DNA from: Candidatus Enterousia intestinigallinarum
GTDB lineage: Bacteria; Pseudomonadota; Alphaproteobacteria; Rs-D84
Reading direction: 5' to 3'
Length of the DNA stretch: 64,000 bases
Assembly (NCBI GenBank): GCA_018716885.1
Contig: DVJI01000011.1
Location: 24,609 to 88,608 of the forward strand
In this document: one piece after another, positions 24,797 through 25,049 of the stretch
How the letters are laid out: each line of letters opens with the position of its first letter
Numbering within the stretch: position 1 is the first letter of the stretch
Notes under the pieces: model-generated
The model's database searches: none
The model's input: only the letters and a program-made list of their open reading frames with translations
What the model was told of the DNA's origin: nothing
Made by a program: the position numbers and the translations under genes

Positions 24797-25049
24797 AAAA
24801 AATTAAACCGCCACAGAAATGGCGGTCGGGCGTTTTCAAAATCATAACACGGATGATCCCGATGCTTTCGGATAAACCTGTTGTATAACATCGGACGCCC
24901 GACATTACGGCCGGGCATAACGATGCGAAATGCATCATTTGCAATATGGATTACGATGCATTCGCATCGCGTGTTATGGGTTTTGAAAGACCCGAACCCA
25001 CATCCCTGTGGATTCAGTGCAATGATATACGATTTTTTTTATAACGCAA
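24797..25049 (-). ncRNA. C4-antisense-like structured leader/attenuator, module C (upstream of GT2)
   Basis: TTGCGT-N16-TATCAT promoter; GGG-tcTTTCAAAA-CCC-ATAACACG complementary to downstream CGTGTTAT-GA-TTTTGAAA; alternative stems into terminator ACCGCC/GGCGGT-ttaatttttt; G-U pairs favour minus strand. Confidence 0.7.

Follow-up and report, generated by a model that had tools for sequence, protein, structure and literature searches.

The c4 antisense RNA of the immI region of phage P1 is a three-way-junction RNA derived from the leader of the very operon under its control. Its two recognition elements are matched twice, by a1 and b1 upstream and by a2 and b2 downstream at the ribosome-binding site (RBS), and it acts by translational repression and Rho-dependent polarity, without a role for an intrinsic terminator. 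In this work we analyzed a leader RNA encoded on the minus strand of a 64,000-nucleotide stretch of Candidatus Enterousia intestinigallinarum DNA (contig DVJI01000011.1), hereafter the window, in which it precedes a gene for a GT2-family glycosyltransferase (GT2). The junction of this leader appears to be a c4-like antisense module whose pairing surfaces are matched by an upstream mimic, and to which an anti-P1 strand and an intrinsic terminator have been added. Judged by sequence and predicted structure, the leader belongs to an uncatalogued multi-copy family of RNAs of roughly 215 nt that is not specific to GT2, and in these gut bacteria with tiny genomes it is probably an on/off switch for cell-surface genes.

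The closest catalogued relative is sRNA-Xcc1 (RF02221), which occurs in integron cassettes, plasmids and temperate phages. Canonical members are each found immediately ahead of a single gene in the same orientation, be it a BRO-family gene, ant or symE; the arrangement with symE in the same orientation is described in a preprint (bioRxiv 10.1101/2025.06.18.660453). Xcc1-like sequence was also seen in many lambdoid phages near antB genes. Two canonical loci, one on a Pseudomonas aeruginosa plasmid (L142) and one in phage Aaphi23 (L143), served as controls and score 72.6 and 86.1 bits, respectively, with the Xcc1 model. The P3 loop CCUCUGCUU of L142 complements AAGCAGAGG, and CUGUUUG in L143 complements CAAACAG; both sites touch the downstream Shine-Dalgarno (SD) sequence. 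In both loci the junction strand J3/1 complements a site adjacent to that of the P3 loop, which yields a two-part RBS complement (AAGCAGAGG with GUUAAACC in L142, CAAACAG with UCGAAA in L143), a feature drawn from these two loci and not a curated criterion. The comparison suggests that sRNA-Xcc1 is a c4-like antisense regulator of antirepressor-type genes.

A scan against Rfam revealed no match above thresholds and no catalogued riboswitch at the GT2 leader. The 3' domain of the leader (24904-24816) nevertheless aligns to the full length of the sRNA-Xcc1 model (positions 1-87) with 38.8 bits and E = 3.3e-5. Paralogues and relatives score 29.9-49.6 bits, and none reaches the gathering threshold of 53. 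The similarity extends to the architecture, since the leader contains the three-way junction of P1, P2 with its AUACAA/GAA asymmetric loop, and P3, with P1 (GUCGGGCG.../...CGCCCGAC) in nearly the same letters as in phage Aaphi23, and J3/1 and the P3 loop are pairing surfaces in both. There are differences as well. The leader stays below the 53-bit cut-off (38.8-49.6 bits), its two-part complement is located upstream in the same RNA and not downstream at the RBS, and the X1 strand and strong terminator that it possesses are absent from the two canonical loci. The genes behind the leaders encode envelope or secreted proteins and GT2, as opposed to antirepressors or toxins.

With c4 of phages P1 and P7 (RF01695), to which IsrK is related, the leader shares an upstream a'b' domain that corresponds in position to a1b1, but it lacks a conserved downstream b2 site and carries the added intrinsic terminator and anti-P1 strand. 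Neither c4 nor IsrK (RF01394) gave an Rfam match over 24600-25300, even at E up to 10. The leader also resembles riboswitch and attenuator platforms in its three strands whose pairings are predicted to exclude one another (X1:X', X':X2, with X2 reaching into the terminator). As in multi-copy families such as c-di-GMP-I, a junction with a conserved internal loop is found in many copies that precede surface-related genes. An intrinsic terminator lies immediately upstream of the open reading frame (ORF), with no intervening promoter predicted. It differs from such platforms in the short overlap of antiterminator and terminator (2-4 nt, and 2-3 nt in the GT2 copy), in the absence of a leader peptide, and in that its own genome contains neither GGDEF nor RelA/SpoT.

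Predicted structure and covariation of the leader

The leader consists, from 5' to 3', of the hairpins P0 and Pa, the strand b', a region M of two hairpins, the strand X1, the three-way junction closed by pairing of X' with X2, and the terminator (Table 1). The whole fold has a predicted energy of -101 kcal/mol, with z = -7.8 for the minus strand against z = -5.7 for the plus strand, and 8 of the 75 pairs of the minimum free energy (MFE) fold are G-U. The assignment to a minus-strand RNA in an earlier note on this DNA, made from the letters alone, is thereby upheld. An element acting at the DNA level or on the plus strand was rejected on account of conserved G-U pairs in P3 and P1 and of the scores of the covariance model R1 (231 positions, built from 15 copies), which gives 198 bits for the GT2 leader read on the minus strand but 14.7 for the plus strand.

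The earlier note had proposed that about 22 of 26 nt at 24826-24851 pair with 24970-24995, enclosing three hairpins. We count 21 of 26 paired positions without gaps, or 23 bp with one bulge, and a duplex energy of -25.9 kcal/mol, compared with a mean of -7.1 (standard deviation 2.4) and a best value of -16.9 among 2000 shuffles. On the predicted structure this long-range pairing is two conserved helices, one between a' in the Pa loop and J3/1 and the other between b' and the P3 loop. These helices may form together with the local hairpins, as a double pseudoknot, or in alternation with them. The three enclosed hairpins are present as well, and correspond to P2 (24859-24894), X1:X' (24895-24918) and M1/M2 (24921-24969). 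M1 and M2 are alike and can alternatively merge into one long hairpin; the M region is variable, or missing in short copies, and comprises a single hairpin in the GT2 paralogue loci L011, L016 and L017.

The strand X' can pair with X1 upstream or with X2 downstream. X1:X' comprises 9 bp including 2 G-U (-14.1 kcal/mol as a hairpin), and X':X2 comprises 9 Watson-Crick bp (-18.5 kcal/mol as a duplex). In a column-anchored table of 38 sequences, X1:X' averages 8.9 contiguous bp and P1 (X':X2) 10.6 bp. The three strands change together across subtypes, of which three are found in the 64-kb window alone: that of the GT2 leader (subtype I), subtype II (X1 CUCCUGA, X' UCAGGAG, X2 CUCCUGA) and subtype III (X1 CUCCAACC, X' GGUUGGAGG, X2 CCUCCAACC). 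The two-way pairing of GUCGGGCGU with AUGCCCGGC or ACGCCCGAC, as claimed previously, is therefore conserved and covaries over the three subtypes. Pair 176-257 of X' and X2 occurs as GC, UA, CG, UG or AU, that is, as five pair types, and the variable positions of X' covary with X2 and in part also with X1.

Covariation supports every predicted helix, both rival pairings of X' included. In alignment A3, which contains 38 sequences and was fitted to the P1 structure, 96.5% of the cells are paired and 22 of 37 pairs are changed on both sides, a result reached by none of 500 shuffles; sliding the partner columns lowers the pairing to 31-48%. The long-range a/b helices are absent from the model and thus constitute an independent test of covariation. 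The mean energy of a+b duplexes is -17.5 kcal/mol for cognate and -8.3 for non-cognate combinations. The b/b' helix occurs in 25 distinct combinations, with all four Watson-Crick pair types at six positions (3-8), and 8.3 of its 9 positions are paired in cognate combinations versus 4.7 of 9 in non-cognate combinations in the same register. Pa and P3 covary or differ between subtypes with compensation, as in the P3 stem, which is GUCAU/AUGAU in one subtype and ACAAU/AUUGU in another. In the subtype III copy of the window, b' (AUUGUCAAG) pairs with b (CUUGACAAU) and a' (UUCACAA) with a (UUGUGAA). Compensatory changes were also found within the GT2 orthologue set, where U-A replaces C-G in both P0 and P2, and G-C replaces A-U in P2.

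The internal loop of P2, which is common to sRNA-Xcc1, contains the most conserved unpaired nucleotides of the leader (UAUACAAC / GAAAG), with the AUA-AA-A columns invariant. Because of this conservation it is a candidate binding site for a ligand or a protein.

Family members and the genes behind them

A DNA search of the 919-kb Enterousia genome recovered diverged copies of the leader, about 21 by iterated nhmmer, and R1 detects at least 24 copies in the same 0.92 Mb. This figure is a lower bound, since R1 misses the subtype III copy of the window. In the order to which the organism belongs, R1 matches 185 of 201 genomes and 17 of 23 genera, with at most 11 matches counted per genome. Beyond the order, 15 additional alphaproteobacterial genera gave matches, out of 99 sampled across the class; one of these matches, in a 2.5-Mb genome, is followed by a gene for a signal-peptide protein. 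A same-strand SD sequence and start codon follow 19 of 23 copies of the own genome at 21-33 nt past the model end; for two further copies the ORF lies at +59 and at +105, respectively, and the last two are followed by none.

Most of the genes behind the leaders encode cysteine-rich signal-peptide proteins. Others encode a 965-aa autotransporter-like protein, an outer-membrane beta-barrel, two PAP2 phosphatases and GT2, so that the leader-controlled genes together would be an envelope and surface set. A role of the leader in surface-glycan variation, which the earlier note had envisaged with a phage receptor as its example, is plausible because the putatively controlled genes form such a set. 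The two PAP2-superfamily phosphatases have signal peptides and are preceded by leaders at C7:1524-1668 and C10:71302-71414. Together with GT2, they point to leader-controlled modification of the envelope or of lipid A.

In 37 distinct copies an upstream TTG and a TAnnAT occur at a fixed spacing from P0, in surroundings that are otherwise unconserved. Each copy thus has its own promoter, with the RNA predicted to start at the foot of P0, and that of the GT2 leader is predicted to be of the sigma-70 type. The position of the -10 box is also kept among the GT2 orthologue loci, despite their diverged flanks.

A check of orthologous GT2 genes, suggested by the earlier note, found the leader in all seven of at least 65% identity, the copy under study counted. 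The six others share 65-94% protein identity with it (L070 (= L037), L071, L072 (= L045), L073 (= L044) and L074/L075 (= L040/L039)). The leader is also present at six GT2 paralogues of 30-33% identity (L011, L013, L016, L017, L023 and L028). In the orthologues, identity to the GT2 copy is 83-100% for the leader, 58-95% for the nucleotides of the coding sequence (CDS), 42-95% for the SD spacer and 39-68% for the 66 nt further upstream. In L074 and L075 the leader-GT2 unit is located upstream of the OmpA gene instead of downstream, implying that leader and GT2 move together. The 94%-identical orthologue L070 has a leader of 100% identity, an upstream 66 nt of 49% identity and no OmpA gene nearby, and its divergence from window 25016-25080 marks the 5' edge of the leader as a rearrangement boundary of a leader-gene cassette. 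An assignment of orthology by synteny among the first 40 relatives was discarded, as it returned only paralogous GT2 genes; the true orthologues came via the covariance-model search.

Terminator competition and alternative readings

With moderate confidence, we read the leader as a cis-acting, bistable transcription attenuator that gates GT2. Transcription would begin at the leader's own promoter, right after the terminator of the OmpA gene. GT2 would be transcribed only by read-through of the leader terminator, since that terminator lies 17 nt ahead of the GT2 start codon, where the earlier note had placed it. Termination would be the regulated step. In the presumed OFF state, X' would pair with X1 in a local hairpin and the terminator would form. 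In the presumed ON state, X' would pair with X2 to form P1, closing the three-way junction P1-P2-P3, and the 3' end of P1 would take the base of the terminator stem, so that read-through would be favoured and GT2 switched on. The helices of a' with J3/1 and of b' with the P3 loop would tie the 5' domain to the junction and either stabilise or gate it. The 5' domain may act as a built-in target mimic, because the same two junction elements pair with the downstream RBS region in the canonical sRNA-Xcc1 loci.

The energetic case for this attenuator varies among copies. In most of them the 3' strand of P1 enters the 5' strand of the terminator by 3-4 nt, and in the paralogue C13 the terminator drops from -12.5 to -1.3 kcal/mol once P1 forms. 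The overlap of the downstream pairing with the terminator, which the earlier note had reported, does exist in the GT2 copy, but it is confined to the outer 2-3 nt (GAC) of the stem. In this leader and its close orthologues P1 reaches only 1 bp past its core, and a 6-bp terminator of -9.2 kcal/mol would survive if P1 holds GAC, compared with -14.3 for the full hairpin. Nested thermodynamics favour the OFF fold by 15.6 kcal/mol (-97.4 versus -81.8 for the P1 fold), in an energy model that leaves out the coexistence of P1 and the a/b helices as a pseudoknot. The surviving terminator and this energy difference weigh against the attenuator, and other points have to be added to them. The U-tract of the GT2 leader is interrupted and weaker than in most paralogues, and no ligand or protein partner was identified. 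The pair counts for P1 call for caution, because they come from an alignment fitted to that stem, and paralogues share descent, so that the covariation counts are not independent events. The nearest GT2 relatives at 46-50% identity are mixed, the leader being present in L051 (about 50%) and absent from L008 and L076 (46-49%). The switch logic appears well supported for the family, and its strength in the GT2 copy is uncertain. Comparative evidence supports the earlier proposal of a switchable leader gating GT2, with the corrections that the leader is one of a large family not specific to GT2, that its 3' half is an Xcc1-like junction, and that the competition is weak in this copy.

The leader has its own promoter and a complete intrinsic terminator, as would a stand-alone trans-acting small RNA (sRNA) of the sRNA-Xcc1 type, with its real targets elsewhere and GT2 transcribed by incidental leaky read-through. 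At least one copy of the own genome (C10:55327-55556) has no downstream ORF, and for sRNA-Xcc1 itself a discrete transcript of about 88-100 nt was detected (PMC2996969). This alternative is nonetheless unlikely in view of the co-oriented SD and ATG that follow 19 of the 23 copies, and of the way in which the leader accompanies GT2 when that gene is placed differently with respect to OmpA. Within the same RNA, a' and b' match J3/1 and the P3 loop in copy-specific sequences, and the canonical Xcc1 loci, too, appear to act on the gene immediately downstream. The own genome (98% complete) has no detected homologue of Hfq, CsrA, GGDEF or RelA/SpoT; the lack of Hfq and CsrA argues against a chaperone-dependent trans-acting sRNA, and an Hfq-dependent sRNA was rejected on this basis.

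Regulation might instead concern translation, with X2 and J3/1 masking the RBS as an anti-Shine-Dalgarno sequence when X1 holds X', and P1 freeing it. J3/1+X2 shows a modest preference across the family for its own RBS region (-8.5 kcal/mol against the own initiation region, -6.9 for other copies; permutation p < 2e-4, in a test that ignores shared descent), subtype II offers a perfect 7-bp pairing of CUCCUGA with UCAGGAG, and the orthologue L071 one of AACGCCC with GGGCGUU, while canonical Xcc1 RNAs pair with the RBS region. The GT2 copy does not share this preference; it pairs only CCC:GGG with its SD (-5.2 kcal/mol, rank 23 of 35), the two-part site of the canonical loci is lacking downstream, and its complement lies upstream. 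Among the GT2 orthologues this complementarity ranges from 3 to 7 bp though X2 is invariant, and in most copies a strong terminator separates X2 from the SD. The P3 loop gave no signal against downstream sequence in a family-level test (p = 0.2), and a c4-style b2 target for it was rejected for this lack of signal. Translational control is, on balance, quite unlikely. So is a leader that does not switch at all, in the form of a constitutive structured 5' module that attenuates and stabilises or insulates to a fixed low level, the alternative pairings being folding intermediates. It agrees with the terminator fold winning at all transcript lengths tested in the nested energy model of the GT2 copy, with the failure to find a sensor ligand or protein, and with a genome lacking GGDEF and RelA/SpoT enzymes. 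However, the mutual complementarity of X1, X' and X2 through three subtypes is hard to explain unless both pairings function, the internal loop of P2 is strongly conserved in sequence, and the leader is more conserved than the CDS.

A further elaboration, which we regard as very unlikely, is a self-addressed switch, in which the abundant terminated leader would pair in trans only with nascent transcripts of the same locus through its copy-specific a/b elements, competing with the mimic or replacing it. This would produce locus-specific feedback, and each surface gene, GT2 included, would be bistable between ON and OFF, as in phase variation but with the DNA unaltered.

Several simpler candidates were discarded. 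A separate promoter for GT2, which in the earlier note would have made the RNA an independent sRNA, was rejected, as no promoter-like site is predicted in the 17 nt separating the terminator from the ATG. A leader peptide was rejected because the paralogues do not retain the sole AUG-initiated frame, which is located in the P0 loop. CsrA titration or binding at the 5' hairpin, where ACAGGGAUGU resembles the CsrA site from systematic evolution of ligands by exponential enrichment (SELEX), was dismissed in the absence of CsrA above cut-off; furthermore, the P0 loop is of the GNRA type (GGGA or GAGA) and is not kept in short GT2-type leaders. A self-made second messenger as the signal was rejected for the products of GGDEF and RelA/SpoT only, neither domain being found in the genome.

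Locus features and biological meaning

The features of the locus are compiled in Table 1. The best NCBIfam model for the GT2 protein is a PRK10073-type glycosyltransferase, with a score below the model cut-off. Its nearest relatives outside the own lineage are Bacteroidota proteins (37-41% identity), compared with 30-36% for other Enterousia GT2 paralogues, a hint that the gene was acquired horizontally and then captured under the leader.

Table 1. Features of the GT2 leader and its locus, other leader copies in the window, and the two canonical sRNA-Xcc1 loci. Positions refer to the window, except for L142 and L143.
Feature	Position	Strand	Sequence or description	Basis or remark
Intergenic region		-	Flanked by OmpA-family lipoprotein gene and GT2 gene	
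OmpA-family lipoprotein gene	25105-25752		Upstream of leader	PF00691
Terminator of OmpA-family gene	about 25090-25050		Just ahead of leader promoter	
Leader -35 box	25044..25049	-	TTGCGT	Read from sequence; TTG at fixed distance from P0 in 37 distinct copies
Leader -10 box	25022..25027	-	TATCAT	TAnnAT at -13..-8 from first P0 base, conserved across copies
Predicted transcription start	about 25017-25015	-		
Folded leader RNA	25015-24797	-	About 219 nt	
P0	24994..25015	-	5'-terminal hairpin GAAUCCACA / UGUGGGUUC, GGGA (GNRA-type) loop	MFE fold; 7/9 pairs changed on both sides
Pa	24978..24993	-	Hairpin (GGG...CCC), loop holding a' = UUUCAAAA (24988-24981)	a' pairs with a (J3/1)
b'	24970..24977	-	AUAACACG, partner of P3 loop	Covarying b/b' combinations
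M region	24921..24969	-	Hairpins M1 (24969-24954) and M2 (24937-24921)	Fold
X1	24910..24918	-	AUGCCCGGC, upstream partner of X', proposed anti-antiterminator	X1:X' hairpin -14.1 kcal/mol
X'	24895..24903	-	GUCGGGCGU, switch strand, 5' strand of P1	
P2	24859..24894	-	Hairpin with asymmetric internal loop UAUACAAC / GAAAG	Rfam alignment; 5/6 pairs covary
P3	24840..24858	-	Hairpin, loop b = CGUGUUAU (24851-24844)	Stem compensated between subtypes
a	24834..24841	-	UUUUGAAA, J3/1 strand of junction, partner of a'	
X2	24825..24833	-	ACGCCCGAC, 3' strand of P1, proposed antiterminator strand	P1 averages 10.6 contiguous bp
Intrinsic terminator hairpin	24806..24827	-	GACCGCCAU-UUCU-GUGGCGGUU	Terminator scan; 3/5 core pairs covary
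U-tract	24797..24807	-	UUUAAUUUUUU	End 17 nt ahead of ATG
GT2 Shine-Dalgarno	24789..24793	-	AGGGA	Read from sequence
GT2-family glycosyltransferase gene	23871..24779	-	302 aa, ATG at 24779	Pfam PF00535, E = 5.5e-29
Subtype II copy	37443-37654	-	X' = GGUCAGGAGG; ahead of 102-aa cysteine-rich signal-peptide protein	R1 44.8 bits
Subtype III copy	52810-53018	-	Same part order	Too diverged for R1
Canonical sRNA-Xcc1, L142	1498-1620		P. aeruginosa plasmid NZ_CP093017.1; ahead of BRO-family gene	
Canonical sRNA-Xcc1, L143	898-1023		Phage Aaphi23; ahead of ant	

Three further observations concern related elements. At window 12476-12553 (minus strand), two hairpins and a long U-tract make up a short promoter-proximal leader that is directly followed by an SD and ATG; it scores 17.3 bits with R1 and is probably a different, simpler terminator leader. 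In another alphaproteobacterial family, a 2.5-Mb genome contains a distant member (L069 1501-1740) with X1, junction and terminator that precedes a signal-peptide protein, and whose P3 loop (UCCUCU) is complementary to the SD that follows (AGAGGA). It is flanked by a dCTP-deaminase-like gene on one side and a gene for a KAP-type NTPase on the other. This element may stand midway between canonical Xcc1 and leaders of the Enterousia type. Many copies across the order are found within a few hundred bases of contig ends of metagenome-assembled genomes (MAGs), among them G078:C10:546-772, G139:C11:163-384 and G149:C21:88-327, which suggests that assemblies break at repeated or variable leader cassettes.

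If the attenuator reading is true, one undescribed RNA design would control a large part of the exported and envelope proteins in a gut lineage that is widespread and uncultured and has sub-1-Mb genomes, comprising cysteine-rich secreted proteins, an autotransporter, an outer-membrane barrel, PAP2 phosphatases and GT2. The lineage concerned is devoid of Hfq, CsrA, c-di-GMP synthesis and (p)ppGpp synthesis. The poorly understood sRNA-Xcc1 family gains a testable logic, with J3/1 and the P3 loop as apparent antisense surfaces directed against the RBS downstream, and the leader would show how an Xcc1 module can be remodelled into a terminator switch that carries its own target mimic. Being compact and different in each copy, the a/b helices may serve as orthogonal parts in RNA engineering. 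Should the self-addressed switch prove true, an antisense module of the c4/Xcc1 type would have become an autonomous and orthogonal switch that works in cis and in trans, and a 0.9-Mb genome would contain at least 24 copies of it.

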